From positions 16,618,001 to 16,682,000 of the forward strand of contig OZ076409.1 of NCBI GenBank assembly GCA_964187785.1: a stretch of 64,000 nt of DNA, given 5' to 3'. The translations under genes were made by a program, and so were the position numbers. The number at the start of each line of letters is the position of its first letter. Position 1 is the first letter of the stretch. This document shows, in pieces, positions 2,058 to 62,893 of this stretch. Under the pieces are notes generated by a model. That model was not told the origin of the DNA. It saw only the letters and a list, made by a program, of their open reading frames with translations, and did no database searches. The DNA is from Amphiscolops sp. MND2022. Its lineage: Eukaryota.

Positions 2058-2659
2058 TTTTTGTCAGAAATGTGGTTTAACTTCGGTGACAGTTTTGCAA
2101 AAGGGGTCAAATTGAAAAGATAGCAAAAAACGGACAACGCCATTAGAAAGAGCGTCCAAAAAAACCCCCATGCTGAAATTTTCGCCGCCATCACTTGAAT
2201 TTTCATTGAGTTATGTCATTTTTACTATTTTCACAAAATGTGGTTTAACTTCGGTGACAGTTTTGCAAAAGGGGTCAAAATGAACAGATAGCAAAAAACG
2301 GACAACGGCATTGGAAAGAGGGCCCAAAATTACCCCTAAAACGTGTTTTTCACACTCCTGAGTCGACTTTTGATAATACATGGAATTTCATTTTTAAGCT
2401 TACTAATTTATGCTTTTCAGCATACATTTTCGTAATAGAGTCAAAATTTTGCTTTCTCACAATTTTTCTGGAATATTTTTGTTTCATCAGATGTCAATAA
2501 CTTGAAACGTCGTCTTTTCATGAGAATTTCTCCTCAAAACAAGTTGTTGGCTGGTAATGGTAAGTCCGTACCGCAGATAGGAGTCTCGCGCTCCAAAAAT
2601 TGACTCTTTGCTTTTAGCCTAATTGTTGTGATAAACTTATTAAATAGGTAAGTATTCCA

Positions 2660-2754
2660 TTTTTGGAGTATATCTTGCCTGTTTGAGGTGTGAGTCGCAG
2701 CAATCATAGGTCCAAAACCAGTAACCAAAAACCAACCTGTACTTACTGTTTGAA
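2660..2754 (+). mobile_element. 95-bp non-coding insertion at the SL splice donor (mini-element, variant 1)
   Basis: Flanked by a 14-bp duplication AGGTAAGTATTCCA (2646-2659, 2755-2768); homologous to inserts at 3677 and 13679. Confidence 0.8.
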
Positions 2755-2952
2755 AGGTAAGTATTCCAACCCTATTGATAAGTTTTATTTGAAAGCAGAC
2801 TGCGAAAGTGGTCTGCTGCCCAATTTTTTGAACAAGGAACAAGCTAGTCTGCACTAACGTAAAAGTTACGCGTATTTTGACCGAGAAAATTTTCGTATCA
2901 TTGTACGTAATTTTGTTGTTAAGCATATAAAGCTATTGATTTTACAATGATC

Positions 2953-3071
2953 GGCTACGACCATACCATGTTTAATGCACCGGTTCTCGTCCGATCACCG
3001 AAGTTAAACAACATAGGGCCTGGTTAGTACTTGGATGGGAGACCGCTTGGGAACACCAGGTGTTGTAGCCT
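2953..3071 (+). rRNA. 5S rRNA (one substitution)
   Basis: Copy with ATGTTTAAT for ATGTTGAAT. Confidence 0.95.
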
Positions 3072-3676
3072 TTTTTGTCAGAAATGTGGTTTAACTTCGG
3101 TGACAGTTTTGCAAAAGGGGTCAAATTGAAAAGATAGCAAAAAACGGACAACGCCATTAGAAAGAGCGTCCAAAAAAACCCCCATGCTGAAATTTTCGCC
3201 GCCATCACTTGAATTTTCATTGAGTTATGTCATTTTTACTATTTTCACAAAATGTGGTTTAACTTCGGTGACAGTTTTGCAAAAGGGGTCAAAATGAACA
3301 GATAGCAAAAAACGGACAACGGCATTGGAAAGAGGGCCCAAAATTACCCCTAAAACGTGTTTTTCACACTCCTGAGTCGACTTTTGATAATACATGGAAT
3401 TTCATTTTTAAGCTTACTAATTTATGCTTTTCAGCATACATTTTCGTAATAGAGTCAAAATTTTGCTTTCTCACAATTTTTCTGGAATATTTTTGTTTCA
3501 TCAGATGTCAATAACTTGAAACGTCGTCTTTTCATGAGAATTTCTCCTCAAAACAAGTTGTTGGCTGGTAATGGTAAGTCCGTACCGCAGATAGGAGTCT
3601 CGCGCTCCAAAAATTGACTCTTTGCTTTTAGCCTAATTGTTGTGATAAACTTATTAAATAGGTAAGTATTCCAACC

Positions 3677-3789
3677 TCGGAATATTTCTTGCCTGTTTGA
3701 GGTGTGAATCACACATACTTATCAATAGGGCCCAAAAGCCAGTAACCAAAAACCAGTAACCAATAACCAACCTGTACTTACTGTTTGAA
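3677..3789 (+). mobile_element. 113-bp non-coding insertion at the SL splice donor (mini-element, variant 2)
   Basis: 17-bp duplication AGGTAAGTATTCCAACC (3660-3676, 3790-3806). Confidence 0.8.
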
Positions 3790-3987
3790 AGGTAAGTATT
3801 CCAACCCTATTGATAAGTTTTATTTGAAAGCAGACTGCGAAAGTGGTCTGCTGCCCAATTTTTCTAACAAGGAATAAGCTAGTCTGCACTAACTTAAAAG
3901 TTACGCGTATTTTGACCGAGAAAATTTTCGTATCATTGTACGTAATTTTGTTGTTAAGCATATAAAGCTATTGATTTTACAATGATC

Positions 3988-6492: not shown

Positions 6493-9024
6493 GAGAAAGT
6501 GAAAGAAATACTAGAAACATCTAAAGTCGCATCCGAAAAATTTGGGAACATTGTGTCTTGTCATGATATCTTTAAAGCGAAAACAAGAGATCAACTAAAA
6601 TACCTTAGTGCTACAAGCAAAAAGATGCTAGTGAAACAAAAAGAAAAAATTCAGATGGATATTGAAAAACTTGAAGAAAATTGTTCTAAGGGAAATTGTT
6701 CTGACCAACAGATCAAACAGAACTTAGAGCACCTGACATGCCTCAAAAATAATCTTCAATTGATCAAAAATGAAGAATCTGAAAATTCATTTCAACAAAT
6801 CAAAAACTTCTTTAGGGAAGCCAATGATGGAAACACAAAAAATATCAAATGCTTAGCGAAAGCCTCAAGCTTAGCTAAGGATATCAAAAAGATTGAAAAA
6901 CAAGATGGATCATTCACAGAAGATCCTGACGAAATTTTAAATGAATTCAAATCTTTTTATGAGAAATTTAGCCAACCAAAATGGAAACCAACAGAAACAT
7001 CCTCGAAATCTCAGGATAAATTCATTGAAAAGTTTTTTAAACAAAAAAGGAAAAGCATTGAAAACATTGAACAATTGTTCAAAGAAACGTTGGAGGACCC
7101 CGACAACGAAATCACAGTATATGAAGTTGAAAAAGCTATCTCTAAACTGAACTCAAACAGTGCTCCTGGATCCGATGGACTTACAAGTCAATTATACCAA
7201 AACCACAAAAACTTTTTTGCCCCGTATCTTTCAAATCTATTTAATAAAATCAATGAAAATGGAGAAGTTCCGGACTCATTTAAACATGCAATCATCAAAG
7301 TAATTCCTAAGAAAAATAATTCACTGAAGGTATCCGAATTTCGGCCAATTAGTCTCATTAATACGGATCAAAAAATTCTTTCTCATGTTCTAGCAGAAAG
7401 ACTCAAACCTATTTTATCAGTATTAATTGGTAATCATCAAAACGCTCATTTACCAAATAGAAATATACATATTGCCATACAAAAAATTCAGCATTACGCC
7501 CATGAAACTACTCGTAGTCAATCACTTATCGCTATTGACTTCAGTAAAGCTTTCGACTGTGTAGAGCGTAGCTTTTTACAAAAACTGATTGAAAAATGTC
7601 CAATCGATAAGTTTACTCAAGAAATGATTTTACTTACGTACAAGGATACTTATGCTTTCATTGGAATGAAAAATGGAATTTCCACAAAATTCAAAATAGA
7701 TAGAGGGGTGAGACAAGGCTGTCCTCTCTCAGCATTGATTTTCAATATTTGTCTTGAACCTCTTCTACAAAGAATTCAAAAATCAAAATACATAAAATCA
7801 AAACAACAAACAAAATGTATTGCCTACGCAGATGATATAACGATCAGCCTCTACAACAAATCTCTTCGGAAGCTATTGATTATTCTGGATCATTTTCACG
7901 AAATAGCAGGCTTAGAAGTTAATTTAGCCAAAACTGAAATCCTTTCGAAAGCGGACAAATTATTTGTATCGGAAAAACTAACAAGAGTTACCACAACAAA
8001 AATTCTTGGAGTTTACATTTCGCTGAATAAAACTCTCAAAAAAGAAACCAAGAACGCAATAACGAATGCTTTTAACTCAACAGAAAAGTTCATACTAAAA
8101 AATAGTTCGTTCCGTGCGAGAGCTAGAAATATTGAGACTTTTATCTACTCGAAATTAATTCATCATCTGAGACACGAAAATTTGTATAAAAAATTTCTTC
8201 GAAAAGTTCAATCGAAAATAATAGATGTTTTCTGGCTGTACAAAAAACACAATGTTAAAAAAAAAATTCTTGAGCTACCAATTGAAGAGGGCGGAGTAAA
8301 CCTCAAGAACTTCTCCAAATACTACCTAACTGCCAAGATTATGAACTTGAAGTTCCTAGCGGTTAACCCAAAGGAGAGAAAATACATACAAGAATTAAAG
8401 AAATCAAAATTTTTTTCAGAATTAGAAAAACACTTCGAAAAACAACACATTGAAATCCTAGAACTGAACCCAGAAGAACTTATAATCCAACATCATTTCA
8501 CTACGCTTAATATAACAAAAGAGACAACTTCGAAAGAAATTTATACTTTTTTGAACAACTCCTCAATAAACGTCCCACCGCCTCTAAAAACTGAAGTTAC
8601 TGCAACAAAACAAAATATAGCACCCGAAATTTTGAACTCAGTTACAAAGAACATCTGGAAAAACAAAAAACTCACTTCGTTTGATAAAAACTATCTTTAC
8701 TGCTTCCTAATGAATTCGTATCTAGATAAACAAGACAAGTGGCTTAAAAATCTTGTTCTCCAACCACTATGTTTCGCATGTGAAGCAGAATTTGAAACAT
8801 GGGACCATTTAATGTTTTCTTGTAAAAATTTGAAAACGTTAACATTGAAGTTGAACGTTTTTTCATGGAAGGAAATATGGCTTGATCGAAGTTGTCTCTC
8901 TCAAAAACTCCTTGTAGCAATAATGCTCTCGTCGTGGACAGAATCAATTGGAGACTACTTAAAATATTTTCTGGAACGTATGAAAGTAATACTAATACCA
9001 GTTGCAAATCTATCTGATAATTGA
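6493..9024 (+). CDS. Partial ORF2 (RT plus C-terminal CCHC zinc finger), N-terminally truncated but uninterrupted
   Basis: APGSDG, RPISLIN, IDFSKAFD, GVRQGCPLS, YADD, CFACEAEFETWDHLMFSC; begins just after the point where the EN domain ends in family B. Confidence 0.92.
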   Translation, partial: EKVKEILETSKVASEKFGNIVSCHDIFKAKTRDQLKYLSATSKKMLVKQKEKIQMDIEKLEENCSKGNCSDQQIKQNLEHLTCLKNNLQLIKNEESENSFQQIKNFFREANDGNTKNIKCLAKASSLAKDIKKIEKQDGSFTEDPDEILNEFKSFYEKFSQPKWKPTETSSKSQDKFIEKFFKQKRKSIENIEQLFKETLEDPDNEITVYEVEKAISKLNSNSAPGSDGLTSQLYQNHKNFFAPYLSNLFNKINENGEVPDSFKHAIIKVIPKKNNSLKVSEFRPISLINTDQKILSHVLAERLKPILSVLIGNHQNAHLPNRNIHIAIQKIQHYAHETTRSQSLIAIDFSKAFDCVERSFLQKLIEKCPIDKFTQEMILLTYKDTYAFIGMKNGISTKFKIDRGVRQGCPLSALIFNICLEPLLQRIQKSKYIKSKQQTKCIAYADDITISLYNKSLRKLLIILDHFHEIAGLEVNLAKTEILSKADKLFVSEKLTRVTTTKILGVYISLNKTLKKETKNAITNAFNSTEKFILKNSSFRARARNIETFIYSKLIHHLRHENLYKKFLRKVQSKIIDVFWLYKKHNVKKKILELPIEEGGVNLKNFSKYYLTAKIMNLKFLAVNPKERKYIQELKKSKFFSELEKHFEKQHIEILELNPEELIIQHHFTTLNITKETTSKEIYTFLNNSSINVPPPLKTEVTATKQNIAPEILNSVTKNIWKNKKLTSFDKNYLYCFLMNSYLDKQDKWLKNLVLQPLCFACEAEFETWDHLMFSCKNLKTLTLKLNVFSWKEIWLDRSCLSQKLLVAIMLSSWTESIGDYLKYFLERMKVILIPVANLSDN

Positions 9025-9115
9025 TGATATGATGCAATTCTGATCTAATGAATTCCAGATTGATCTTTTGTAAAAAAAAGTGTTGATATTATTCATGATT
9101 AATTGAATTTTTGAA
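6493..9115 (+). mobile_element. Family A non-LTR retrotransposon (L1/Tx1-like), 5'-truncated, in SL exon
   Basis: 18-bp TSD AGCCTAATTGTTGTGATA (6475-6492, 9116-9133); carries an RT reading frame lacking the endonuclease. Confidence 0.93.
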
Positions 9116-13082: not shown

Positions 13083-13678
13083 TTTTTGTCAGAAATGTGG
13101 TTTAACTTCGGTGACAGTTTTGCAAAAGGGGTCAAATTGAAAAGATAGCAAAAAACGGACAACGCCATTAGAAAGAGCGTCCAAAAAAACCCCCATGCTG
13201 AAATTTTCGCCGCCATCACTTGAATTTTCATTGAGTTATGTCATTTTTACTATTTTCACAAAATGTGGTTTAACTTCGGTGACAGTTTTGCAAAAGGGGT
13301 CAAAATGAACAGATAGCAAAAAACGGACAACGGCATTGGAAAGAGGGCCCAAAATTACCCCTAAAACGTGTTTTTCACACTCCTGAGTCTAATACATGGA
13401 ATTTCATTTTTAAGCTTACTAATTTATGCTTTTCAGCATACATTTTCGTAATAGAGTCAAAATTTTGCTTTCTCACAATTTTTCTGGAATATTTTTGTTT
13501 CATCAGATGTCAATAACTTGAAACGTCGTCTTTTCATGAGAATTTCTCCTCAAAACAAGTTGTTGGCTGGTAATGGTAAGTCCGTACCGCAGATAGGAGT
13601 CTCGCGCTCCAAAAATTGACTCTTTGCTTTTAGCCTAATTGTTGTGATAAACTTATTAAATAGGTAAGTATTCCAACC

Positions 13679-13791
13679 TCGGAATATTTCTTGCCTGTTT
13701 GAGGTGTTAATCACACATACTTATCAATAGGGCCCAAAAGCCAGTAACCAAAAACCAGTAACCAATAACCAACCTGTACTTACTGTTTGAA
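13679..13791 (+). mobile_element. 113-bp mini-element at the SL splice donor (variant 2)
   Basis: 17-bp duplication 13662-13678 / 13792-13808; nearly identical to 3677-3789. Confidence 0.8.
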
Positions 13792-13989
13792 AGGTAAGTA
13801 TTCCAACCCTATTGATAAGTTTTATTTGAAAGCAGACTGCGAAAGTGGTCTGCTGCCCATTTTTTTGAACAAGGAACAAGCTAGTCTGCACTAACTTAAA
13901 AGTTACGCGTATTTTGACCGAGAAAATTTTCGTATCATTGTACGTAATTTTGTTGTTAAGCATATAAAGCTATTGATTTTACAATGATC

Positions 13990-15589: not shown

Positions 15590-17571
15590 CGGCGTTACTC
15601 TGTCAGCCTGCAAACTTCGTTTGCACAGCGCCATCTTGCAAATTTTGCAGCAAAAGTTGCAAAAGTAATGACTAATTTGAACACGAGTGAGCTTGATCAA
15701 CATCATAATGAAAATGTTGAGCAAAATTGTTACAAAAATGCAGTTATTTCCTCGTCGAAATCGAACTCAAATATGGACAAATTACCAATTATTATCAACT
15801 TTGCCTTACCACTGACATCTGAAATGTTCAAAAACAGCAAATTACTGGATTCAATGTTTGTGGAAGCTGTTATGGCCGTCAAAAACCGACTTATCTCCAA
15901 TGAAATTACCATCTTCAAAACTACAATTTTACGCAACAAAGGCAATTTGAAGTGTATTACTGTGATCATTCCTTACAAACTTGAAAATGCAGCTTCCTCT
16001 CTTATTCACGAGGGCATTACTCTTCGCAATCGGAAAATACGGCCTTATTCTGTCAAATATTCCAACCCGAACAACAATGTCTATCCAAAAAGATTACCAA
16101 TATCTTTCCGAAACCTACCACACTTTCTGACGGATGAGGATATTTTGAGTAGCTGTGGTCTTCAAAACTTCAAATTTAGTAGCAAAATTTCTCATCAACA
16201 ACGACGACTTCCTGATAGCAGCCTTTTTTATACAGGAGAGGCAAGAATTACAGTTTTAATTGACAATGAGAATGAGGAAAGTTTACTACAAAACTGGGCC
16301 AATAATGCATATGACAAAATGTTTAGTTCCAGTGGCATTTTTTTCAAATGTTGCTGTATCCCACTCCTCGAATGCTCTTTATGCGTCAATGAGAACCTTC
16401 CCAGTGCTCATCAACAATCAAGATGCCCAAAACAACTATCAGACGAACAGCAAATACAGAAAAACAGTGAATCTCAGAACCAAAAGTTAACAACTGACTA
16501 CGTTATGGAAACTGCAGAAACAGAGCCAATGTCTAATGAACCTGAACTGTCAGATTCAGATGATGCTGAACCAATCTCAAAGGCGCCAAAGCAGACCGAT
16601 GATGGTACTGAAACCGAATGCAATAACAACGTGGCAGAAACTGAACAACCATGCATTAACAACTCAAAGAAAGATACCAATCCTATGCAAAAACCTAAAC
16701 TAATACATCGCTCAACTGAATGGGAATCCTCAACAGACCTTGCCCGAAATCAAGCAGATGACCAACAGTCAACGGCAAAGCATGGATATCATGAATACCC
16801 ATTCTTTTTGGAAAAGAAACAAAACAAAATACTGGCACCCGAAACTATTTTCAACGAAATACCTCCTATAAAAGAACATGTGATCAAAACCCAACAAACT
16901 TCTGGCTACATCAATACACTAGACAAGGAAAAGAAAATTCAAAGGACCTTTTCACTCGTACAACCACTGAAGAAAGAAAAACTCGAAGATCTTTTATCTG
17001 AATCAAACTGGAAACATTCTGACTCTAACACTATTTTAACTTCTCTTTATGAATTTTACTCATTGATCCGGAAGTTTGATCCATTCTATGATGCTACAAA
17101 CCACCAAATTTACACTATTAATCTGCAGAATAAAATTGTACAAGTTTTCACTGCAGTTGAAAACTTATACAATGAAAACAAAAACTAAACTGAAAAATTT
17201 CGGACCTTTTTGACTGGAACTTTAAAGTTCTAAATCTCTACAATACCATCATCAATCAACCCAATTCCCAATTCTTTTCGAGCACTAGTTGTTCGCAACC
17301 TGTATGCAAAAAACGGGTTTTGAGAACAAACTCCTTCCAGGAGCAAACATCTTTTTTTTCATACATTCTCCAAACTACATTATACTAACTTCATACCAAA
17401 AAAAAACATTCCCATTTTGGCGCTTTCTCAAAAATGCCATAACCAAGCATCTTCATCTACATACTTCTGCTTTTTCAACACTTCAGTTACTCATATACTC
17501 ATTTTATACATATACCTTAGACTTCATTACTTTTTACTTGTAAATTCTCAGTTATTAATATAGTCTTCAAA
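15590..17571 (+). mobile_element. Family C ORF1-only non-autonomous retroelement, copy C1, in SL exon
   Basis: 18-bp TSD (15572-15589, 17572-17589); single ORF, no RT; last 25 nt identical to family B. Confidence 0.9.
15668..17188 (+). CDS. ORF1/gag-like protein, 506 aa: RRM-like region, CCHC knuckle, acidic linker, uncharacterised C-terminal domain
   Basis: YPKRLPISFRNLP...YTGEARITV and CSLC...HQQSRC align by eye with family B ORF1; first ATG at 15668 (the track GTG start lies in the TSD). Confidence 0.85.
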   Translation: MTNLNTSELDQHHNENVEQNCYKNAVISSSKSNSNMDKLPIIINFALPLTSEMFKNSKLLDSMFVEAVMAVKNRLISNEITIFKTTILRNKGNLKCITVIIPYKLENAASSLIHEGITLRNRKIRPYSVKYSNPNNNVYPKRLPISFRNLPHFLTDEDILSSCGLQNFKFSSKISHQQRRLPDSSLFYTGEARITVLIDNENEESLLQNWANNAYDKMFSSSGIFFKCCCIPLLECSLCVNENLPSAHQQSRCPKQLSDEQQIQKNSESQNQKLTTDYVMETAETEPMSNEPELSDSDDAEPISKAPKQTDDGTETECNNNVAETEQPCINNSKKDTNPMQKPKLIHRSTEWESSTDLARNQADDQQSTAKHGYHEYPFFLEKKQNKILAPETIFNEIPPIKEHVIKTQQTSGYINTLDKEKKIQRTFSLVQPLKKEKLEDLLSESNWKHSDSNTILTSLYEFYSLIRKFDPFYDATNHQIYTINLQNKIVQVFTAVENLYNENKN

Positions 17572-18494: not shown

Positions 18495-20480
18495 CGGCGT
18501 TACTCTGTCAGCCTGCAAACTTTGTTTGCACAGCGCCATCTTGCAAATTTTGCAGCAAAAGTTGCAAAAGTAATGACTAATTTGAACACGAGTGAGCTTG
18601 ATCAACATCATAATGAAAATGTTGAGCAAAATTGTTACAAAAATGCAGTTATTTCCTTGTCGAAATCGAACTCAAATATGGACAAATTACCAATTATTAT
18701 CAACTTTGCCTTACCACTGACATCTGAAATGTTCAAAAACAGCAAATTACTGGATTCAATGTTTGTGGAAGCTGTTATGGCTGTCAAAAACCGACTTAAC
18801 TCCAATGAAATTACCATCTTCAAAACTACAATTTTACGCAACAAAGGCAATTTGAAGTGTATTACTGTGATCATTCCTTACAAACTTGAAAATGCAGCTT
18901 CCTCTCTTATTCACGAGGGCATTACTCTTCGCAATCGGAAAATACGGCCTTATTCTGTCAATTATTCCAACCCAAACAACAATGTCTATCCAAAAAGATT
19001 ACCAATATCTTTCCGAAACCTACCACACTTTCTGACGGATGAGGATATTTTGAGTAGCTGTGGTCTTCAAAACTTCAAATTTAGTAGCAAAATTTTTCAT
19101 CAACAACGACGACTTCCTGATAGCAGCCTTTTTTATACAGGAGAGGCAAGAATTACAGTTTTAATTGACAATGAGAATGAGGAAAGTTTACTACAAAACT
19201 GGGCCAATAATGCATATGACAAAATGTTTAGTTCCAGTGGCATTTTTTTCAAATGTTGCTGTATCCCACTCCTCGAATGCTCTTTATGCGTCAATGAGAA
19301 CCTTCCCAGTGCTCATCAACAATCAAGATGCCCAAAACAACTATCAGACGAACAGCAAATACAGAAAAACAGTGAATCTCAGAACCAGAAGTTAACAAAT
19401 GACTATGTTATGGAAACTGCAGAAACAGAGCCAATGTCTAATGAACCTGAACTGTCAGATTCAGATGATGCTGAACCAATCTCAAAGGCGCCAAAGCAGA
19501 CCGATGATGGTACTGAAACCGAATGCAATAACAACGTGGCAGAAACTGAACAACCATGCATTAACAACTCAAAGAAAGATACCCATCCTATGCAAAAACC
19601 TGTATTAATGCATCGCTCAACTGAATGGAAATCCTCAACAGACCTTGCCCGAAATCAAGCAGATGACCAACAGTCAACGGCAAAGCATGGATATCATGAA
19701 TACCCATTCTTTTTGGAAAAGAAACAAAACAAAATACTGGCACCCGAAACTATTTTCAACGAAATACCTCCTATAAAAGAACATGTGATCAAAACCCAAC
19801 AAACTTCTGGCTACATCAATACACTAGACAAGGAAAAGAAAATTCAAAGGACCTTTTCACTCGTACAACCACTGAAGAAAAAAAAACTCGAAGATCTTTT
19901 ATCTGAATCAAACTGGAAACATTCTGACTCTAACACTATTTTAACTTCTCTTTATGAATTTTACCAATTAATCCGGAAGTTTGATCCATTCTATGATGCT
20001 ACAAACCACCAAATTCATACTATTAATCTGGAGAATAAAATTGTACAAGTTTTCACCGCAGTTGAAAACTTATACAATGAAAACAAAAACTAAACTGAAA
20101 AATTTCGGACCTTTTTGACTGCAACTTTAAAGTTCTAAATCTCTACAATACCATCATCAATCAACCCAATTCCCAATTCTTTTCGAGCACTAGTTGTTCG
20201 CAACCTGTATGCAAAAAACGGGTTTTGAAAACAAACTCCTTCCAGGAGCAAACATCTTTTTTTCATAAATTCTCCAAACTACATTATACTAACTTCATAC
20301 CTAAAAAAAAAAAAACATTCCCATTTTGGCACTTTCTCAAAAATGCCATAACCAAGCATCTTCATCTACATACTTCAGCTTTTTCAACACTTCAGTTACT
20401 CATATACTCATTTTATACCTATACCTTAGACTTCATTACTTTTTACTTGTAAATTCTCAGTTATTAATATAGTCTTCAAA
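18495..20480 (+). mobile_element. Family C element, copy C2
   Basis: TSD 18477-18494 / 20481-20498. Confidence 0.9.
18573..20093 (+). CDS. Family C ORF1-like protein, 506 aa, intact
   Basis: Near-identical to 15668-17188. Confidence 0.85.
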   Translation: MTNLNTSELDQHHNENVEQNCYKNAVISLSKSNSNMDKLPIIINFALPLTSEMFKNSKLLDSMFVEAVMAVKNRLNSNEITIFKTTILRNKGNLKCITVIIPYKLENAASSLIHEGITLRNRKIRPYSVNYSNPNNNVYPKRLPISFRNLPHFLTDEDILSSCGLQNFKFSSKIFHQQRRLPDSSLFYTGEARITVLIDNENEESLLQNWANNAYDKMFSSSGIFFKCCCIPLLECSLCVNENLPSAHQQSRCPKQLSDEQQIQKNSESQNQKLTNDYVMETAETEPMSNEPELSDSDDAEPISKAPKQTDDGTETECNNNVAETEQPCINNSKKDTHPMQKPVLMHRSTEWKSSTDLARNQADDQQSTAKHGYHEYPFFLEKKQNKILAPETIFNEIPPIKEHVIKTQQTSGYINTLDKEKKIQRTFSLVQPLKKKKLEDLLSESNWKHSDSNTILTSLYEFYQLIRKFDPFYDATNHQIHTINLENKIVQVFTAVENLYNENKN

Positions 20481-20827: not shown

Positions 20828-21790
20828 TTTTTGTCAGAAATGTGGTTTAACTTCGGTGACAGTTTTGCAAAAGGGGTCAAATTGAAAAGATAGCAAAAAA
20901 CGGACAACGCCATTAGAAAGAGCGTCCAAAAAAACCCCCATGCTGAAATTTTCGCCGCCATCACTTGAATTTTCATTGAGTTATGTCATTTTTACTATTT
21001 TCACAAAATGTGGTTTAACTTCGGTGACAGTTTTGCAAAAGGGGTCAAAATGAACAGATAGCAAAAAACGGACAACGGCATTGGAAAGAGGGCCCAAAAT
21101 TACCCCTAAAACGTGTTTTTCACACTCCTGAGTCGACTTTTGATAATACATGTAATTTCATTTTTAAGCTTACTAATTTATGCTTTTCAGCATACATTTT
21201 CGTAATAGAGTCAAAATTTTGCTTTCTCACAATTTTTCTGGAATATTTTTGTTTCATCAGATGTCAATAACTTGAAACGTCGTCTTTTCATGAGAATTTC
21301 TCCTCAAAACAAGTTGTTGGCTGGTAATGGTAAGTCCGTACCGCAGATAGGAGTCTCGCGCTCCAAAAATTGACTCTTTGCTTTTAGCCTAATTGTTGTG
21401 ATTTTACCCGAGGCGAACCGCTGCCAAATTTTAAAATCACCTCTCTCTGAGCTGTTTCAGCTCAAAAAGCACAAATTAATTTCGATTTGTCTTTCTCTGC
21501 TTTTCTGAACCGACTTTCTTTTACTTTACTTTTCCGAAATTTAACCAAATTTCGTTATTGAAATGAAACAAAAAGCGTTCAAAAAAACGCCAAATTCGCA
21601 AGAAAAATTCCCAAAATACTCTCCAACTGTTACTTTCGAAGGCAAAGCCTCCATCAGCGAGAATAACAATAGGGCCAACCCGACCAATTCTACTTCAATA
21701 AAAAAAAACAAAATGCGAAAAACTTTGCATCAGAATTCCTAAAACACAACGAAACTTCCAAAGCTTCATACAACAACAAATTACCATTAA

Positions 21791-23580
21791 ATGACTCTAC
21801 TTCTCAAGTCTTCAACGCAACTGGTCCCACAAGCCCTGTTTACGGCCACGGAACCAGTATTACTGCAGAAAAAAATTACATGCATTATCTCAACGATGAA
21901 ATTCCGATAACGTATGCTGGGTCCCAAAACTCGGAGGAAAATCCTAATTATTCAACACCCACTTGCAGTAGAGATGAAAATGAAGTATCAGCAGGAGCAT
22001 CTTAACAAGCCCAAGCCTCCAACATACCAACAATGCAAACCCAGTGTCTACAAAACCCAAAATTCCCAGATCAATGCAACATACCACATCCGAAAAGTCA
22101 AACTGAGAATTATATGTCGACAAGGCAAAATCAGCTATCTTATATTTCTTCTCTGCCGGACTTCACCAGTCTGTATCAACAGGAAGAGCAATGTTCTGGT
22201 GACCGCTACGTCTCTCCCATTGAGAGAAAGCGCCACTACAGCCATGATGAAATGGCTGCTGCAAATTCAGAATCGTTAAACAATAACTTCTCAAATCTTG
22301 GCGTCCCAGCGCAACAAGGACAAACAAGAGCAAACAATGCTTACAATGACTCAAGCCTCAACAATGCCACTCAGCGTACGCTGGAAGAAGCGGTAAACAA
22401 CGCAATAGAAGTCACAAATCCTTCTGCCGAAGCAATGTATACCGACACAATAAGAGGACAAACAAACCCAAAACCGACTACTAACAACATGGCCTCATAT
22501 TCTCAGGTAACATGCCTCAGAAATCCAACCGCTACTGTTACTAACAAAATACACAAACTCAGAATTGTTCCACCTCTGAGAAAAGAGCATTTTACAAATG
22601 CCTCAACAATGCAACAGGAAATAGATAAAGCGTACCAGGAGATCCTTGTGGCGTTTTCACCCAACATAAGGCACCTAATAACAATCTCGAGAACTATCGT
22701 CAAGGTGTCCGAGAAAAACTATCAAGTACTGCAAGTGATAGCACCAAAAGAAGCCGAAAATGATATTAATAACATGAAGCTATCCGGTCTTACCATAATG
22801 GGACGGACTGTGTTTCCCTCCTCAGAAGATTTTTGGCAAGTCCGACAATCCTTTTACCCCAAACCCGCTACAATAAGAAGTAACAATGTTCCAGTAATTT
22901 GCACCGACGAAGAGTTGTTCAAAACTCTTGAAATTCCCGCCTTCCTGGAATACGGTGCCATAGTGAGAGAAACCAAACATACAGGTATCGGTCCAGTCCA
23001 TACAGGCAAAGTTGCGATCAAAATAAAAATCAACTCTGCAGAGGAAGAAACAGAACTCCGCAAATGGTCATTCAACAAGGCCTTTGCTAACCCAGCAGAA
23101 TGGATGGGAATAGACATACCTACCAGCATCCCGATGCTCCATACTTGCAAAAGATGCAAAGAGGAAAAACGGCCACAATTCCGGGGCCATGAGGAAGAGT
23201 GGTGCCGAATTCGCAGGTCCACCCCACACGAACCCCAAAATGAGAACCAACCTTCGCTCAATAGGAACCCAGAACTGCCTACAGCTCCTTCTGAGCTGAC
23301 TAAACAAACCTCAGCCTCGACAACAGTCAACGAAGAAACGATGGAAAATGAGAACCACAACCATCAAGAAGACACGGTGATCCACAACCAGGATGAGGAA
23401 TGGCAAACGGTGGGCAAACAACAAGGACAAAAGCGTCCCCAGAAGGTTCCTTCAGAAACATCCTCGAGCTCAAGGAACAGCAGCCCGACCAAAGCTCCAA
23501 AACCGAAACAACCAGCACTACAAAACAACAGTTGCCCCAATGTACCAGACGATCAGCAAAAACGGTATGATGGCTCTTGA
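21791..23580 (+). pseudogene. Family B ORF1 (gag-like, RRM-like plus CCHC); 5' part has a frameshift and a stop relative to B2, open from 22033
   Basis: YPKPATIRSNNVP, HTGKVAIKI, CKRCKEEKRPQFRGHEEEWC; A-run difference near 21870 and TAA near 22003 versus B2. Confidence 0.8.
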
Positions 23581-26500
23581 TATTCTATGTGTGAACATCA
23601 GAGGCCTTGCTAATCCAGCAAAGCTTCTCGAGATCTGTGAAAAAAGGCAGATCCTAGGCAAAAATAATGAAACATGCATTGTAATACAAGAAACTAAGAT
23701 AATTAAAATGAAGGAGGAACATGAAAAAATACTAAAAAAATACAAATTAAAAAGTGAGGAAGTACCTGCTATAGGAGGGTCCGGGGGGCTACTAACAATC
23801 ATACCAGAATTTTTGCAATACCAAGTTCTTCTGAAAGGTACAAGTTGCCTTGCACTCAAGATTAGCAAAAACAACCAAGAAACGATTCTGATCAATACCT
23901 ATATCAATCCAAAAGACTTCAGAGCTGAAAACTTCTGCGCATGTTTAGAAGAATTAGGCTTAGAACCCACCCATAGAATTCTTATAGCAGGTGATTTCAA
24001 TGCAATAGACAACGAAGATATTGGAAAAAACGATGCCTTGAATAACTCAATCAAAAATAATGATATCAGAATCTTACGCTATAAACGCATAATACCTTAT
24101 ATGAACTCACTGCTTTTGAAGGACCAAGTTAAAGAACAAAATACCGTTCAACCGACTCACTACGATAAGAGAACAAAGAAAAATAGCAGAATTGACTATA
24201 TTTTTAGCAACTGCATAAGTGACGAGCAAAAAATCGAATTGTTCAACATTACAAAAACTGATCACAAATGTCTTTTTCTACGAACCCACGAAGAAAGGTT
24301 AGACTTGAAGCAATCGCAATGGAAACTTAACGATACGGTACTTGATGACAGATTCCGAATCAACGAAATTTTAAAAAATGCAATCCCAAAACTTAAGAAC
24401 AAGCTGTCACTTGCAGAAACCTACGATAATTTTAAAGCCAACGTAAGAGATGACCTCCGACAGCTTTGTATTGAAAAACGAAACATTGAAAAAGCCTACG
24501 AAAGGCAACTTATACGTGACATTAAAGACCTAGAACATGAACGGTTTGTATGCAACAACAAACCAGAAGAAATAAATCGAATCCAAAAAGAGATTGACAG
24601 AAAAAATGATGAAATCGATGCTCTGATCAACAACCAAAATAGAATGCAATTAAATAAAATCAAAAATTTCTACAATGAAGTGAACGAAGGTAACCCAAAA
24701 CAGGTTAAACAACTTGTTTCCGCTCTTAGACCGAGTACAAGAATTAACAAACTGAAAAAAGACAATGGCGAAACAATCAACTCTCAAAATGATATTGTAG
24801 AAGAGATAACTACTTACTACCAAAATCTTTATGAGAGTCATGCTCCTCCTAGTCCAAACAACTATGAGCCCACATTACAACAAACAACTTACCTACAAAA
24901 ATATTTTAAAAGAATTGAGAACAAGCTCTCTACCTATGATAATACGAACATAAATGAAGACGAGATCACAGAATTTGAAGTAGAACAGGCGATTTTGAAA
25001 CTGAATAACAAGAGCGCTCCCGGACCCGACGGTCTCACATCTAATCTATACCAAACTTATAAAAACTTCTTTATTCCCCTATTAACCGACCTATTCAATG
25101 ACATTATACGGAAAAAACAAGTTCCTCCTTCATTTAATCTAGCAATCATCAAACTCATTCCAAAGAAATACGCCTCTGAAAAAGTCTCCGACCTCAGACC
25201 AATAAGTCTAATCAATTCAGACCAAAAAATCTTGTCACATGTCCTGACTAAAAGAATCAAACCTCTCTTCGATCATGTCATAGGAAATCATCAATATGCT
25301 CATCTCACTGACAGAAATATTCACACAGCCCTAACTAAAATCCGCCAATACTCAACAAGCTTGAGAAGCAAAGAAGCCCTGTGTGCTCTAGACTTCTCCA
25401 AAGCGTTTGATTGTGTTGACAGGGGTTTTCTCATGGCTATTCTTAAATATCTTCCAATTCCAGAAACAACAATCAATCTCATTGAAGCTCTCTATCAAAA
25501 TACGATCTCAATCATTGACGTCAACTCCGAGTTTTCTAAACCAATTAAAATTACAAGAGGAGTCCGTCAAGGATGTCCACTATCAGCAATCCTTTTTATC
25601 CTAGTGATAGAGCCCCTGCTGGACAAAATCCAAAGATCAAGAAAAATCAAATCTACTAACCATCAAAAATCGATCGCTTTTGCCGATGACATCACAGTAT
25701 CCATTAAAACGAAGTCAATAAACAAACTTATCAAGTTTCTTGATGATTTTGAAATGATAGCAGGGCTTGCAATAAACTATGATAAATCAGAAATGCTGAC
25801 CAAAAACCACAACATCTTCTTCAGAAACCCGGAAAAGACATTGAAAACGGTCAATCGAGTCAAAGTTCTTGGAGTTTTTATCACAACTAAATACGGAATA
25901 GACTGTAACACAAAAAACAAAATAGAAACAATTTTAAGTCAGGCAACAAAATTCACCTCAAAAAATATGAGCTTCCGAGCACGGGCAATCAATTTAGAGA
26001 CCTTCATTCTTTCCAAAATAACCTATCAATTGAGACACTTTACCAAAAACAAAACCTATATGAAAAAACTCAATGCTAAAATGGTTGATGGCTTTTGGAA
26101 TCATAAAAAACATAACGTCAATCAAGAAATTGCGCATTTGGAACGCAAAGAAGGTGGTATAGGCCTAAAAAAACATCAATCGAAGAGTACTAGTCGCAAA
26201 ACTCATGAATCTAAAAGTATCCCTTCTGGGTCCCAACAACCATGATAATTACAATGACTTCAAAGGCTCAAAATGGTTCAAACAAATTGAGAGAGATTTG
26301 AAGAACGAGAATATCGATTTTGTAGAAATCACAAACGAAATAATGAGAATTCAATATCTTTCCCAAACTATTGAAATCAACAACAATACAAAATCAAAAG
26401 ACATCCATCAAATATTACGAAACCCAACAATTAGTAATGCATGCCTTCCTCGCATAACAAAAACTGCTACGAAACAAAATATTTCCCCCGATCGCATTTT

Positions 26501-26882
26501 GTGCGTTCTGAAGTCACTCTGGAATAACACGAAATTGAAGTCATTCGACAAAAACTACATTTATTGCTTCTTAATGGATGCTTACCTTGACAAGGAAGAA
26601 AAATGGGAAAAACTTCTAACTCCTCATCCACTTTGTTTCCAATGTGGTGCGGAATTCGAAACATACTCTCACCTGATGTTTGATTGCTCTCTAACCCAAG
26701 ACCTAAAAAAGAGCCTAAAATACCAAAACTGGCAACATATATGGACTGACCGAACCGGGAAATCCCAAAAACTGTTAGTTGCAATGCTTCTATCCTCTTG
26801 GACCGAGGAAGAAGGACCTTATTTAAGTTTTCTCAGATCTAAACTAACTAACCACAACCCTAAGCAGGTACCAATAAACTAA
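23567..26882 (+). pseudogene. Family B ORF2 (APE endonuclease, RT, CCHC), ~1104 aa consensus; one +1 frameshift in an A run near 26170
   Basis: EN motifs VNIRGL, IQET, AGDFN, SRIDYIF, TDH; RT motifs APGPDG, LDFSKAFD, GVRQGCPLS, FADD; CFQCGAEFETYSHLMFDC. Confidence 0.92.
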
Positions 26883-27254
26883 AACACAACCTTCCTTAAG
26901 TTCACACATAGATAGATGTATTCATTTGTCTATTGTTTTTGTTATTACTATGTACAATTTTTTTTATATATGAGTTTTTTTTTTGTTTTAGTTTTGTAAT
27001 ACTCAGTTATTAATATAGTCTTCAAAAGCCTAATTGTTGTGATAAACTTATTAAATAGGTAAGTATTCCAACCCTATTGATAAGTTTTATTTGAAAGCAG
27101 ACTGCGAAAGTGGTCTGCTGCCCAATTTTTTGAACAAGGAACAAGCTAGTCTGCACTAACTTAAAAGTTACGCGTATTTTGACCGAGAAAATTTTCGTAT
27201 CATTGTACGTAATTTTGTTGTTAAGCATATAAAGCTATTGATTTTACAATGATC

Positions 27255-27949: not shown

Positions 27950-29338
27950 GCAAAATTTCTCATCAACAACGACGACTGCCTGATAGCAGCCTTTTTTATA
28001 CAGGAGAGGCAAGAATTACAGTTTTAATTGACAATGAGAATGAGGAAAGTTTACTACAAAACTGGGCCAATAATGCATATGACAAAATGTTTAGTTCCAG
28101 TGGCATTTTTTTCAAATGTTGCTGTATCCCACTCCTCGAATGCTCTTTATGCGTCAATGAGAACCTTCCCAGTGCTCATCAACAATCAAGATGCCCAAAA
28201 CAACTATCAGACGAACAGCAAATACAGAAAAACAGTGAATCTCAGAACCAAAAGTTAACAACTGACTACGTTATGGAAACTGCAGAAACAGAGCCAATGT
28301 CTAATGAACCTGAACTGTCAGATTCAGATGATGCTGAACCAATCTCAAAGGCGCCAAAGCAGACCGATGATGGTACTGAAACCGAATGCAATAACAACGT
28401 GGCAGAAACTGAACAACCATGCATTAACAACTCAAAGAAAGATACCAATCCTATGCAAAAACCTAAACTAATACATCGCTCAACTGAATGGGAATCCTCA
28501 ACAGACCTTGCCCGAAATCAAGCAGATGACCAACAGTCAACGGCAAAGCATGGATATCATGAATACCCATTCTTTTTGGAAAAGAAACAAAACAAAATAC
28601 TGGCACCCGAAACTATTTTCAACGAAATACCTCCTATAAAAGAACATGTGATCAAAACTCAACAAACTTCTGGATACATCAATACACAAGACAAGGAAAA
28701 GAAAATTCAAAGGACATTTTCACTAGTACAACCACTGAAGAAAGAAAAACTCGAAGATCTTTTATCTGAATCAAACTGGAAACATTCTGACTCTAACACT
28801 ATTTTAACTTCTCTTTATGAATTTTACTCATTGATCCGGAAGTTTGATCCATTCTATGATGCTACAAACCACCAAATTTACACTATTAATCTGCAGAATA
28901 AAATTGTACAAGTTTTCACTGCAGTTGAAAACTTATACAATGAAAACAAAAACTAAACTGAAAAATTTCGGACCTTTTTGACTGGAACTTTAAAGTTCTA
29001 AATCTCTACAATACCATCATCAATCAACCCAATTCCCAATTCTTTTCGAGCACTAGTTGTTCGCAACCTGTTTGCAAAAAACGGGTTTTGAGAACAAACT
29101 CCTTCCAGGAGCAAACATCTTTTTTTCATACATTCTCCAAACTACATTATACTAACTTCATACCAAAAAAAAACATTCCCATTTTGGCGCTTTCTCAAAA
29201 ATGCCATAACCAAGCATCTTCATCTACATACTTCTGCTTTTTCAACACTTCAGTTACTCATACACTCATTTTATACATATACCTTAGACTTCATTACTTT
29301 TTACTTGTAAATTCTCAGTTATTAATATAGTCTTCAAA
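27950..29338 (+). mobile_element. Family C element, copy C3, 5'-truncated by ~590 bp
   Basis: TSD 27932-27949 / 29339-29356; starts mid-ORF at GCAAAATTTCTCATC; frame open to 28956. Confidence 0.9.
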
Positions 29339-30261: not shown

Positions 30262-32244
30262 CGGCGTTACTCTGTCAGCCTGCAAACTTTGTTTGCACAG
30301 CGCCATCTTCCAAATTTTGCAGCAAAAGTTGCAAAAGTAATGACTAATTTGAACACGAGTGAGCTTGATCAACATCATAATGAAAATGTTGAGCAAAATT
30401 GTTACAAAAATGCAGTTATTTCCTTGTCGAAATCGAATTCAAATATGGACAAATTACCAATTATTATCAACTTTGCCTTACCACTGACATCTGAAATGTT
30501 CAAAAACAGCAAATTACTGGATTCAATGTTTGTGGAAGCTGTTATGGCCGTCAAAAACCGACTTAACTCCAATGAAATTACCATCTTCAAAACTACAATT
30601 TTACGCAACAAAGGCAATTTGAAGTGTATTACTGTGATCATTCCTTACAAACTTGAAAATGCAGCTTCCTCTCTTATTCACGAGGGCATTACTCTTCGCA
30701 ATCGGAAAATACGGCCTTATTCTGTCAATTATTCCAACCCAAACAACAATGTCTATCCAAAAAGATTACCAATATCTTTCCGAAACCTACCACACTTTCT
30801 GACGGATGAGGATATTTTGAGTAGCTGTGGTCTTCAAAACTTCAAATTTAGTAGCAAAATTTTTCATCAACAACGACGACTTCCTGATAGCAGCCTTTTT
30901 TATACAGGAGAGGCAAGAATTACAGTTTTAATTGACAATGAGAATGAGGAAAGTTTACTACAAAACTGGGCCAATAATGCATATGACAAAATGTTTAGTT
31001 CCAGTGGCATTTTTTTCAAATGTTGCTGTATCCCACTCCTCGAATGCTCTTTATGCGTCAATGAGAACCTTCCCAGTGCTCATCAACAATCAAGATGCCC
31101 AAAACAACTATCAGACGAACAGCAAATACAGAAAAACAGTGAATCTCAGAACCAGACGTTAACAAATGACTATGTTATGGAAACTGCAGAAACAGAGCCA
31201 ATGTCTAATGAACCTGAACTGTCAGATTCAGATGATGCTGAACCAATCTCAAAGGCGCCAAAGCAGACCGATGATGGTACTGAAACCGAATGCAATAACA
31301 ACGTGGCAGAAACTGAACAACCATGCATTAACAACTCAAAGAAAGATACCCATCCTATGCAAAAACCAGTACTAATGCATCGCTCAACTGAATGGAAATC
31401 CTCAACAGACCTTGCCCGAAATCAAGCAGATGACCAACAGTCAACGGCAAAGCATGGATATCATGAATACCCATTCTTTTTGGAAAAGAAACAAAACAAA
31501 ATACTGGCACCCGAAACTATTTTCAACGAAATACCTCCTATAAAAGAACATGTGATCAAAACCCAACAAACTTCTGGCTACATCAATACACTAGACAAGG
31601 AAAAGAAAATTCAAAGGACCTTTTCACTCGTACAACCACTGAAGAAAGAAAAACTCGAAGATCTTTTATCTGAATCAAACTGGAAACATTCTGACTCTAA
31701 CACTATTTTAACTTCTCTTTATGAATTTTACCAATTAATCCGGAAGTTTGATCCATTCTATGATGCTACAAACCACCAAATTTACACTATTAATCTGCAG
31801 AATAAAATTGTACAAGTTTTCACTGCAGTTGAAAACTTATACAATGAAAACAAAAACTAAACTGAAAAATTTCGGACCTTTTTGACTGCAACTTTAAAGT
31901 TCTAAATCTCTACAATACCATCATCAATCAACCCAATTCCCAATTCTTTTCGAGCACTAGTTGTTCGCAACCTGTATGCAAAAAACGGGTTTTGAAAACA
32001 AACTCGTTCCAGGAGCAAACATCTTTTTTTTCATAAATTCTCCAAACTACATTATACTAACTTCATACCTAAAAAAAAACATTCCCATTTTGGCGCTTTC
32101 TCAAAAATGCCATAACCAAGCATCTTCATCTACATACTTCAGCCTTTTCAACACTTCAGTTACTCATATACTCATTTTATACCTATACCTTAGACTTCAT
32201 TACTTTTTACTTGTAAATTCTCAGTTATTAATATAGTCTTCAAA
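30262..32244 (+). mobile_element. Family C element, copy C4
   Basis: TSD 30244-30261 / 32245-32262. Confidence 0.9.
30340..31860 (+). CDS. Family C ORF1-like protein, 506 aa, intact
   Basis: Near-identical to 15668-17188. Confidence 0.85.
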   Translation: MTNLNTSELDQHHNENVEQNCYKNAVISLSKSNSNMDKLPIIINFALPLTSEMFKNSKLLDSMFVEAVMAVKNRLNSNEITIFKTTILRNKGNLKCITVIIPYKLENAASSLIHEGITLRNRKIRPYSVNYSNPNNNVYPKRLPISFRNLPHFLTDEDILSSCGLQNFKFSSKIFHQQRRLPDSSLFYTGEARITVLIDNENEESLLQNWANNAYDKMFSSSGIFFKCCCIPLLECSLCVNENLPSAHQQSRCPKQLSDEQQIQKNSESQNQTLTNDYVMETAETEPMSNEPELSDSDDAEPISKAPKQTDDGTETECNNNVAETEQPCINNSKKDTHPMQKPVLMHRSTEWKSSTDLARNQADDQQSTAKHGYHEYPFFLEKKQNKILAPETIFNEIPPIKEHVIKTQQTSGYINTLDKEKKIQRTFSLVQPLKKEKLEDLLSESNWKHSDSNTILTSLYEFYQLIRKFDPFYDATNHQIYTINLQNKIVQVFTAVENLYNENKN

Positions 32245-32591: not shown

Positions 32592-33553
32592 TTTTTGTCA
32601 GAAATGTGGTTTAACTTCGGTGACAGTTTTGCAAAAGGGGTCAAATTGAAAAGATAGCAAAAAACGGACAACGCCATTAGAAAGAGCGTCCAAAAAAACC
32701 CCCATGCTGAAATTTTTGCCGCCATCACTTGAATTTTCATTGAGTTATGTCATTTTTACTATTTTCACAAAATGTGGTTTAACTTCGGTGACAGTTTTGC
32801 AAAAGGGGTCAAAATGAACAGATAGCAAAAAACGGACAACGGCATTGGAAAGAGGGCCCAAAATTACCCCTAAAACGTGTTTTTCACACTCCTGAGTCGA
32901 CTTTTGATAATACATGGAATTTCATTTTTAAGCTTACTAATTTATGCTTTTCAGCATACATTTTCGTAATAGAGTCAAAATTTTGCTTTCTCACAATTTT
33001 TCTGGAATATTTTTGTTTCATCAGATGTCAATAACTTGAAACGTCGTCTTTTCATGAGAATTTCTCCTCAAAACAAGTTGTTGGCTGGTAATGGTAAGTC
33101 CGTACCGCAGATAGGAGTCTCGCGCTCCAAAAATTGACTCTTTGATTTTAGCCTAATTGTTGTGATTTTACCCGAGGCGAACCGCTGCCAAATTTTAAAA
33201 TCACCTCTCTCTGAGCTGTTTCAGCTCAAAAAGCACAAATTAATTTCGATTTGTCTTTCTCTGCTTTTCTGAACCGACTTTCTTTTACTTTACTTTTCCG
33301 AAATTTAACCAAATTTCGTTATTGAAATGAAACAAAAAGCGTTCAAAAAAACGCCAAATTCGCAAGAAAAATTCCCAAAATACTCTCCAACTGTTACTTT
33401 CGAAGGCAAAGCCTCCATCAGCGAGAATAACAATAGGGCCAACCCGACCAATTCTACTTCAATAAAAAAAACAAAATGCGAAAAACTTTGCATCAGAATT
33501 CCTAAAACACAACGAAACTTCCAAAGCTTCATACAACAACAAATTACCATTAA

Positions 33554-38300: not shown

Positions 38301-38646
38301 GAAGTCATTCGACAAAAACTACATTTATTGCTTCTTAATGGATGCTTACCTTGACAAGGAAGAAAAATGGGAAAAACTTCTAACTCCTCATCCACTTTGT
38401 TTCCAATGTGGTGCGGAATTCGAAACATACTCTCACCTGATGTTTGATTGCTCTCTAACCCAAGACCTAAAAAAGAGCCTAAAATACCAAAACTGGGAAC
38501 ATATATGGACTGACCGAACCGGGAAATCCCAAAAACTGTTAGTTGCAATGCTTCTATCCTCTTGGACCGAGGAAGAAGGACCTTATTTAAGTTTTCTCAG
38601 ATCTAAACTAACTAACCACAACCCTAAGCAGGTACCAATAAACTAA
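35331..38646 (+). pseudogene. Family B ORF2 with a frameshift near 35500 and a nonsense codon at 36934-36936
   Basis: Fragments in the ORF track reconstruct the same EN-RT-CCHC protein as B1. Confidence 0.92.
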
Positions 38647-39017
38647 AACACAACCTTCCTTAAGTTCACACATAGATAGATGTATTCATTTGTCTATTGT
38701 TTTTGTTATTACTATGTACAATTTTTTTTATATATGAGTTTTTTTTTGTTTTAGTTTTGTAATACTCAGTTATTAATATAGTCTTCAAAAGCCTAATTGT
38801 TGTGATAAACTTATTAAATAGGTAAGTATTCCAACCCTATTGATAAGTTTTATTTGAAAGCAGACTGCGAAAGTGGTCTGCTGCCCAATTTTTTGAACAA
38901 GGAACAAGCTAGTCTGCACTAACTTAAAAGTTACGCGTATTTTGACCGAGAAAATTTTCGTATCATTGTACGTAATTTTGTTGTTAAGCATATAAAGCTA
39001 TTGATTTTACAATGATC

Positions 39018-62556: not shown

Positions 62557-62893
62557 CTGTATGCAGGGGTGTAAAGTTGAGCATTGTAAAATTATGTGGA
62601 GTTTATTAGTTATATGATAGTTGAATAGTTTTGGTGGTTACATGCCAAAATTTGCTAAGTTAAAATCTAAATGTAAATATCCCAAACGGAATTATCGTAG
62701 GTCAAAAACACCTACCATTAAGATACCATTACCCAAAAATGTTGGCCAACGTACGGCAGTTTTCAAATAACGTCCTAAAAACTGCACTCTTAAAGTAGCA
62801 TTTTCCTGCCTAATTCCAATTTGAAAGAATAACTCATTTTAGATTACAAGCACTTGAAATTTTTGACCATTAGATGGTTTTTTACACCCTCGC

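Follow-up and report, generated by a model that had tools for sequence, protein, structure and literature searches.

The DNA analysed here is one stretch of 64,000 nucleotides, called the window throughout. Its left three quarters are a tandem array with a 905-bp repeat unit that contains a 5S rRNA gene and a spliced leader (SL) RNA gene, and the 5S rRNA family gives 23 Rfam matches within the window. Three short insertions, which we call mini-elements, lie in SL RNA genes of this array (Table 1). The first-pass annotation had described them as two sequence variants with a common 3′ end. Their exact coordinates are confirmed and all three end in CCAACCTGTACTTACTGTTTGAA, flanked by the duplications that it had reported, either AGGTAAGTATTCCA (14 bp) or AGGTAAGTATTCCAACC (17 bp). 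The CCAGTAACCAA repeats that it mentioned are found in the long variant (v2), and the short variant (v1) carries a single copy. Both variants are short and non-coding (95–113 bp), and leader plus insert lacks an ATG. The earlier remark that no internal Pol III promoter is obvious holds: the consensus A/B-box pattern is absent from both variants, a tRNA search of the mini-element found none, and at the gathering threshold Rfam matches only 5S in the window, leaving the inserts without a match to any family, ribozymes included. The main feature of the mini-element was absent from that annotation: its body is antisense to the SL RNA itself.

Table 1. Features of the SL/5S array, the mini-element insertions and neighbouring elements (positions refer to the window unless a contig is given)
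Feature	Position	Strand	Remarks
Host SL exon upstream of short variant	2616..2647	+	32 nt, ends AG, donor GT at 2648
Upstream 14-bp target copy of v1	2646..2659	+	includes SL donor
Mini-retroposon, short variant v1	2660..2754	+	95 bp
v1 antisense arm	2664..2711	+	predicted 38 pairs with SL +2..+44 (30 Watson-Crick, 8 G·U)
v1 A/C-rich linker	2712..2737	+	one CCAGTAACCAA; predicted mostly unpaired
v1 3′ tail	2738..2754	+	short complement of downstream donor; last ~13 nt common with donor-site LINE (12/13)
Downstream target copy and intact rest of SL RNA gene	2755..2823	+	donor, U-rich stretch, terminal stem-loop
5S rRNA gene of repeat unit	2953..3071	+	Rfam RF00001
Host SL exon upstream of long variant	3630..3661	+	published leader; public-run contig breaks
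Upstream 17-bp target copy of v2	3660..3676	+	
Mini-retroposon, long variant v2	3677..3789	+	113 bp; antisense arm about 3679-3715
v2-only 14-nt segment	3717..3730	+	exact reverse complement of SL intron 3805-3818
Downstream 17-bp target copy of v2	3790..3806	+	
Third insertion, upstream 17-bp target copy	13662..13678	+	
Third insertion, v2	13679..13791	+	one base different from 3677-3789
Third insertion, downstream 17-bp target copy	13792..13808	+	
ORF1-only elements at SL +1, two families	15590-17571, 18495-20480, 27950-29338, 30262-32244, 39713-41697, 45165-47147; 42620-44241		
Two further L1-group LINE families at SL +1	21403-27026, 33167-38789; 6493-9115		
Exons of amiloride-sensitive (DEG/ENaC) sodium channel gene	61729-63385	-	Pfam ASC
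Intact donor-site LINE, reference copy L048	G000:C1:16612184-16617025		ends 976 bp before window

The host SL exon is identical to the acoel leader GCCTAATTGTTGTGATAAACTTATTAAATAG(A) printed in PMC9911081. The same source reports SL trans-splicing of 30% of genes, and SL-specific elements go unmentioned in the portions of it drawn on here. In two public runs, whose contigs are of unknown kind, breaks occur at 3629/3630 and directly after 3661 (64 and 79 contigs), with diverse continuations past 3661. These breaks put SL +1 near 3630, with the donor at 3662. What the first-pass annotation called the ‘exon site’, occupied by other elements, is thus the SL start, and the mini-element site lies 30 bp further on, two bases ahead of the donor GT. 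The earlier identification of the target as the SL splice donor, with a T/AG junction about 30 bp past the exon site, was correct, and the published leader confirms that the gene is an SL gene. At an empty donor site the sequence is TAAAT/AGGTAAG, and it lies 30 bp downstream of TTTT/AGCCT; an exact-match search of one assembly finds 1,155 uninterrupted SL donors genome-wide. The U-rich stretch past the downstream donor is presumably the Sm site of the SL RNA.

Among the 20 public runs listed as matching, the best share was 0.26 and none reached half. Four runs compared over 3400–3940 have a depth of 0 at 3685–3722, in the core of v2; since these runs are contigs of unknown kind, probably from other species or individuals, the zero depth is neutral on the element. 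In runs X3 and X4, 956 and 820 contigs match the SL RNA region alone within 3400–3940, with the same SL exon, a diverged intron and many different flanks, which suggests that SL-derived copies or leader-bearing sequences are dispersed in very large number in the organism concerned.

Exact-match searches of one assembly, keyed on the 3′ end of the mini-element, give a genome total of 46 copies (merged loci) in 20 alleles on 9 contigs. Twelve are short (95–96 bp), 30 are full-length long copies (113 bp) and four are 5′-truncated long copies (103, 79, 79 and 71 bp). The 23-nt 3′ end has 39 exact matches and a 16-nt 5′ core has 43, against 0 for the reversed control in each case; the 3′ end is common to 46 of 46 copies, and all 43 matches to the independent 5′ core fall inside them. 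Junctions of TGTTTGAA with the donor number 81 (control, 0) and comprise 44 mini-elements, 36 copies of the LINE described below and one odd case. The junction L077 (G000:C917, near 60624) is neither mini-element nor LINE and has a mini-type 13-nt tail at the donor behind a diverged, spacer-like satellite.

Insertion is restricted to one kind of site. Forty-five of the 46 copies occupy the SL donor of SL/5S arrays, the other a look-alike that agrees at 13 of 17 positions, and about 4% of SL donors carry a mini-element. Target site duplications (TSDs) span 11–17 bp: 14 bp in 12/12 short copies, and in the full-length long copies 17 bp in 25/30 and 16 bp in 5/30, the latter all one allele. The fixed 3′ junction of the first-pass annotation stands, and its ‘variable’ TSD length of 14 versus 17 bp is instead set by subfamily, as a heritable 5′ junction. 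For five alleles, copies are found in two or three array haplotypes each; these haplotypes are defined by markers about 10 nt ahead of SL +1 and 50–75 nt past the junction, and the local flanking markers are retained. The loci L037 (filled) and L080 (empty) have a common array-edge flank and form an allelic or paralogous pair, and at L016 a mini-element lies directly behind a LINE 3′ end. Three of the four truncated copies (79, 79 and 71 nt) end close to the 3′ foot of the antisense arm, a position suggestive of stalling by reverse transcriptase (RT). Neighbouring identical copies, such as five v1 copies within 9 kb on C1, probably come from array amplification, so that insertion events are fewer than 46. 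The mini-element is a real, young, non-autonomous and site-specific retroposon.

A LINE of about 4.85 kb occupies the identical junction. It has 36 copies, 24 full-length and 12 truncated, with TSDs of 12–17 bp in the truncated set (17 bp in 7/12), and exact matches to its 22-nt 3′ end lie at SL donor junctions in 35 of 35 cases. Full-length copies are 99.2–100% identical to the reference copy L048, and both ORFs are intact in 17 of the 24; the other 35 copies lie on C1, C12, C13 and small contigs. ORF1 is 398 aa long, and ORF2 (1055 aa) has an N-terminal APE domain (Exo_endo_phos), RVT_1 and a sub-threshold zf-RVT match. The best PDB match is human L1 ORF2 (E 2e-60), ahead of R2 (8e-31). On its sequence features, namely ORF1 plus ORF2, an APE-RT-C-terminal zinc motif order and an RT closest to L1, this LINE is assigned to the L1 group. 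Its ORF2 is 27–30% identical to those of the exon-site LINEs in the window. A quick RT tree (47/123 rows), built without named Tx1 reference proteins, unites donor-site and exon-site LINEs in one clade (SH-aLRT 100); this clade also includes 25 database proteins, of which none carries the label of a named LINE family, and stands apart from vertebrate RT proteins.

The mini-element and this LINE have 12 of the last 13 nt in common. Beyond this tail, similarity to the LINE 3′UTR does not exceed chance (its score is reached by 163 and 489 of 1000 shuffles), there is none to the LINE 5′UTR (270 and 203 of 300 shuffles as high), and blastn finds no match to the exon-site elements. A UTR homology that a GAGGT hairpin had suggested by eye was rejected on these shuffle scores. 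The first-pass annotation had offered two readings of the insert, a SINE-like passenger or the 3′ stub of a fifth element with shifted specificity. A fifth element at the same junction exists, in the form of the 4.85-kb LINE; the stub is rejected because similarity ends at the ~13-nt tail and the genome search for a longer element carrying the mini-element's 3′ end found 0 of 46 copies above 113 bp. With only the tail held in common, the insert is likely a passenger and not a stub, and the SINE-like reading gains support from the LINE at the identical junction. The common junction, TSD range and tail together make it very likely that the donor-site LINE mobilises the mini-element.

Over its 5′ half, v1 can be aligned to antisense SL sequence from +2 to +44, and in the 38-pair rod predicted for the read-through RNA seven of the eight G·U pairs place an arm G opposite an SL U. 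The minimum free energy (MFE) of the read-through transcript is −68.9 for v1, against −49.3±3.3 for shuffled inserts (z −6.0), and −72.4 for v2, against −51.5±3.2 (z −6.5), with 200 shuffles each. On the reverse strand the values are −40.6 and −62.5, so that strand asymmetry is smaller in v2. The predicted cost of opening the first donor (AG/GUAAGU) rises from 6.4 kcal/mol in the wild type to 15.4 (v1) and 15.0 (v2); the shuffle maxima are 8.3 and 7.8, and 0 of 60 shuffles reach the element's value for either variant. The first donor is predicted to be 0.97–0.99 paired in all 16 full-length alleles. The second donor behaves differently: its GUAAGU is predicted to be 0.96–0.99 paired versus 0.34 in the wild type, and its opening costs of 5.2 and 4.8 lie below the wild type; among 60 shuffles, 4 and 23 reach these costs. 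The local hairpin that the 3′ end of the mini-element forms on the downstream donor is reached by 60 of 1000 shuffles. Masking of both donors, considered as a candidate, is thereby weakened, and the robust predicted lock is on the first donor only. The 14-nt complement found in v2 is predicted to pair with the downstream intron and so restore the SL stem. The ends of the exon-site elements showed no fold-back above about 2 SD.

Fold-back would be expected of every inverted SL copy, and by itself it is no proof of selection. By eye, the aligned v1 and v2 differ at three positions in their common paired arm, all A/G opposite U. An arm G stands at 7 of the 14 positions opposite U, and an arm U at 1 of the 7 opposite G. 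A-to-G changes could be scars of RNA editing by ADAR, and the arm's A-to-G bias fits editing as well as selection, and these counts do not separate the two. Changes among v2 alleles (n=13) fall at unpaired positions in nine cases, keep a pair in two and break a pair in two, a weak trend towards sites predicted to be unpaired. We lean towards hiding of the donor being under selection.

The partner LINE deals with the donor in its own way. Its copy of the SL exon has lost the GT and ends AAAAAG/TCC instead of AAATAG/GTA, and its 5′ end is predicted to form a 13-bp anti-exon hairpin (−20.4 versus −11.6±2.4 for shuffles, 0/500 as low). A 3′ hairpin of the LINE on the downstream donor is not above chance (320/1000 shuffles).

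Junctions indicate what the mobile RNA contains. The off-target copy on C2 abuts, on its downstream side, endonuclease-coding DNA of an old exon-site-type LINE that is 4/17 bases off the target, and its upstream side reads as a canonical exon end plus donor; L026 is similar. An upstream copy that is canonical next to a downstream side 4/17 off cannot be a target duplicate. This mismatch and the TSD length fixed per subfamily imply that SL exon and donor likely travel in the RNA. Among full-length LINEs, 14/24 run seamlessly from promoter through exon, and eight of the other ten carry extra SL exon sequence, which in seven of these starts at +1 to +3, an arrangement that would fit an SL-promoter transcript rejoined via cDNA annealing. 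Judged from these sequences, we hold with good confidence that the mini-element RNA is a transcript of the SL promoter, and its 5′ end is likely the SL exon (2616..2647 for v1). According to PMC3636483, R2 has been shown to be transcribed together with its target, and the same has been proposed for CRE/NeSL. The locus of the C2 copy, L041 (G000:C2:4985800-4989900), is a small, degenerate remnant of an SL/5S array and contains an old LINE of the exon-site type, 46–52% identical to the 5.6-kb family of the window, together with a young mini-element copy.

These observations can be assembled into a cycle. The SL promoter would transcribe the exon, the donor, the mini-element and the rest of the SL gene, giving an RNA that starts at SL +1 and carries exon and donor. 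The antisense arm would lock the first donor, and with that donor sealed the mini-element is predicted not to be discarded by the spliceosome together with the SL intron. LINE ORF2 would then bind the short tail, nick an SL gene at T/AG and copy the mini-element RNA in trans by target-primed reverse transcription. As the junctions suggest, the cDNA end would anneal to the target's own exon, which would account for the single 5′ junction kept by each subfamily. The LINE would solve the same splicing problem otherwise, through its exon copy without GT followed by the anti-exon hairpin. The mini-element may have begun as an SL copy in inverted orientation that became joined to a 3′ tail like that of the LINE. 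At L070 (G000:C13, near 13287800), about 200 bp of inverted SL gene plus flank stand at a LINE 5′ junction, an arrangement that supports such an origin. We consider the account as a whole probable: a LINE-mobilised, SL-promoter-transcribed element that folds over the first donor and escapes trans-splicing.

Several other readings have to be weighed. The mini-element might be a passenger as above in which the fold-back is a by-product: a LINE template switch would have produced the inversion, double-strand RNA editing the A-to-G changes, and no selection would act on donor hiding. Such inversions do arise, as L070 demonstrates, the v1 antisense alignment extends a few bases into the flank before +1 as expected of a DNA-level inversion, and the arm changes are mostly A-to-G. 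The 13-nt anti-donor core is nevertheless unchanged in both diverged variants, while loops and linker vary, and the unrelated LINE 5′ end likewise lacks the GT and has a predicted exon pairing, which points to a shared pressure. We regard the by-product reading as unlikely. It is highly improbable that, starting from one or two ancient insertions, unequal crossing over and gene conversion alone spread the element through the arrays. One fixed 5′ junction per subfamily and clusters of identical neighbours would suit that history, but identical alleles are found in array haplotypes that differ, unaccompanied by flanking markers, and the C2 copy, the independent truncations and the filled/empty pair speak against it. 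It is scarcely credible that the insert stems from faulty assembly, or that it is an alternative SL gene or the 3′ stub of some longer autonomous element. Such readings can draw on the LINE-like tail and the single assembly, whereas no copy exceeds 113 bp, LINE 3′UTR/5′UTR homology stops at the tail, and 20 alleles on 9 contigs stand beside 1,155 uninterrupted donors; the gene-variant and artefact explanations raised in the first-pass annotation are disfavoured on the same counts.

A further possibility is that the insertion rebuilds an SL RNA in which the first donor is locked and the second donor and putative Sm site are usable, so that a leader of 141–162 nt is trans-spliced onto host mRNAs. 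Opening the second donor costs no more than in the wild type, the exact 14-nt complement of v2 is predicted to restore the SL stem by pairing with the downstream intron, the extended leader is free of ATG, and the intron and terminal stem-loop are intact. Against this stand the strong predicted pairing of the second-donor GUAAGU and the genomic context of the matches, since 0/43 of those to the 5′ core and 0/39 of those to the 3′ end precede a gene, unlike a retrocopy. The published leader reconstruction, in the portions of PMC9911081 drawn on here, likewise gives the standard leader only. A rebuilt host leader is thus very unlikely. A variant of the idea makes the mini-element a minimal trans-splicing parasite, made up nearly entirely of antisense host-gene sequence, that takes the SL promoter and cap, folds off the first donor, rebuilds the SL RNA at the second, and could be both retrotransposed by the donor-site LINE and spliced onto host mRNAs as an oversized leader; we consider this decidedly unlikely. 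We return to the preferred reading, a passenger that hides the first donor, for the comparisons below.

The window holds other elements at SL +1. Two families of ~1.6–2.0 kb encode only an ORF1-like protein, 19–35% identical to LINE ORF1s, and no RT. The last ~34 nt of the 2-kb family are common with the 5.6-kb LINE, and these ORF1-only elements are likely non-autonomous passengers. The two further LINE families at SL +1 belong to the L1 group, with ORF2s 41% identical, and ORF2 is interrupted in both 5.6-kb copies. A sodium channel gene lies near the right end of the window (Table 1).

The mini-element has non-LTR (TPRT) traits in its fixed 3′ junction, 5′ truncations, target duplications and empty sites. 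It also has the classical SINE traits of a partner-LINE tail (12/13 nt, short), small size and lack of coding capacity, but it is not a classical SINE, having neither a tRNA, 7SL or 5S head nor an internal Pol III promoter. The R2 SIDEs and R2/R1 hybrid SIDEs of Drosophila 28S genes (PMC3414825) resemble it in being short, non-autonomous and resident in a multicopy RNA gene. According to the same source they are also promoterless, are co-transcribed with the target, and use partner machinery with target duplication; the transcription of the mini-element would match this if it proceeds as set out above. SIDEs are described there as internal deletions of R2/R1 ends with the R2 ribozyme. The mini-element is not a SIDE: it is no internal deletion of a LINE and has no Rfam ribozyme match, and it consists instead of an antisense copy of the host target with a ~13 nt partner-like tail. 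Its partner is of the L1 group, and no L1 SIDE had been seen according to the portions of PMC3414825 drawn on here.

SINEU of crocodilians, mobilised by Tx1-Mar, is likewise short, derived from small nuclear RNA and without a Pol III promoter (PMC4494074). It has a target preference in common with its Tx1 partner, and flank-driven transcription has been proposed for it. SINEU elements have sense U1/U2 heads and poly(A) and prefer a Mariner element (PMC4494074). In the mini-element, by contrast, the small-RNA part is antisense, poly(A) is absent, and the target is the source gene itself. This arrangement outlines a route to a promoterless SINE-like element with almost no partner sequence, in which a target gene is copied backwards and inserted into itself.

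Spliced-leader genes are also the home of CRE, SLACS and CZAR in trypanosomatids and of NeSL in nematodes, for which co-transcription with the target has been proposed (PMC3636483, PMC4640811). Those elements are autonomous and have a restriction-like endonuclease, and the accounts of them in the portions of these two sources drawn on here describe no non-autonomous antisense passenger. Within the open-access literature covered, in part as excerpts, no non-autonomous or APE-type SL-targeting element appears and no retroposon with antisense donor masking. The SL donor seems to be neutralised in two ways, by fold-back in the passenger and by loss of GT in the partner, which makes a long-open point directly testable, namely how SL-targeting elements can be transcribed from the SL promoter without the trans-splicing cut. 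Tx1L, Keno, Kibi and Koshi of the Tx1 clade resemble the partner LINE in their APE-RT architecture, strict multicopy target and TSDs of about 15–17 bp, and no SL target is listed among the sequence-specific Tx1-clade LINEs in the portions of PMC4494074 drawn on here. With the mini-element, a candidate signal of ~13 nt and a 17-bp target are defined for an enzyme of the L1 group that is young, intact and specific to its site. Unlike NeSL and CRE, with their single ORF and C-terminal restriction-like endonuclease, the partner LINE has two ORFs and an N-terminal APE, and it thus places an APE-type LINE at the SL donor, where the SL-specific elements described in PMC4640811 and PMC3636483 all use restriction-like endonucleases.
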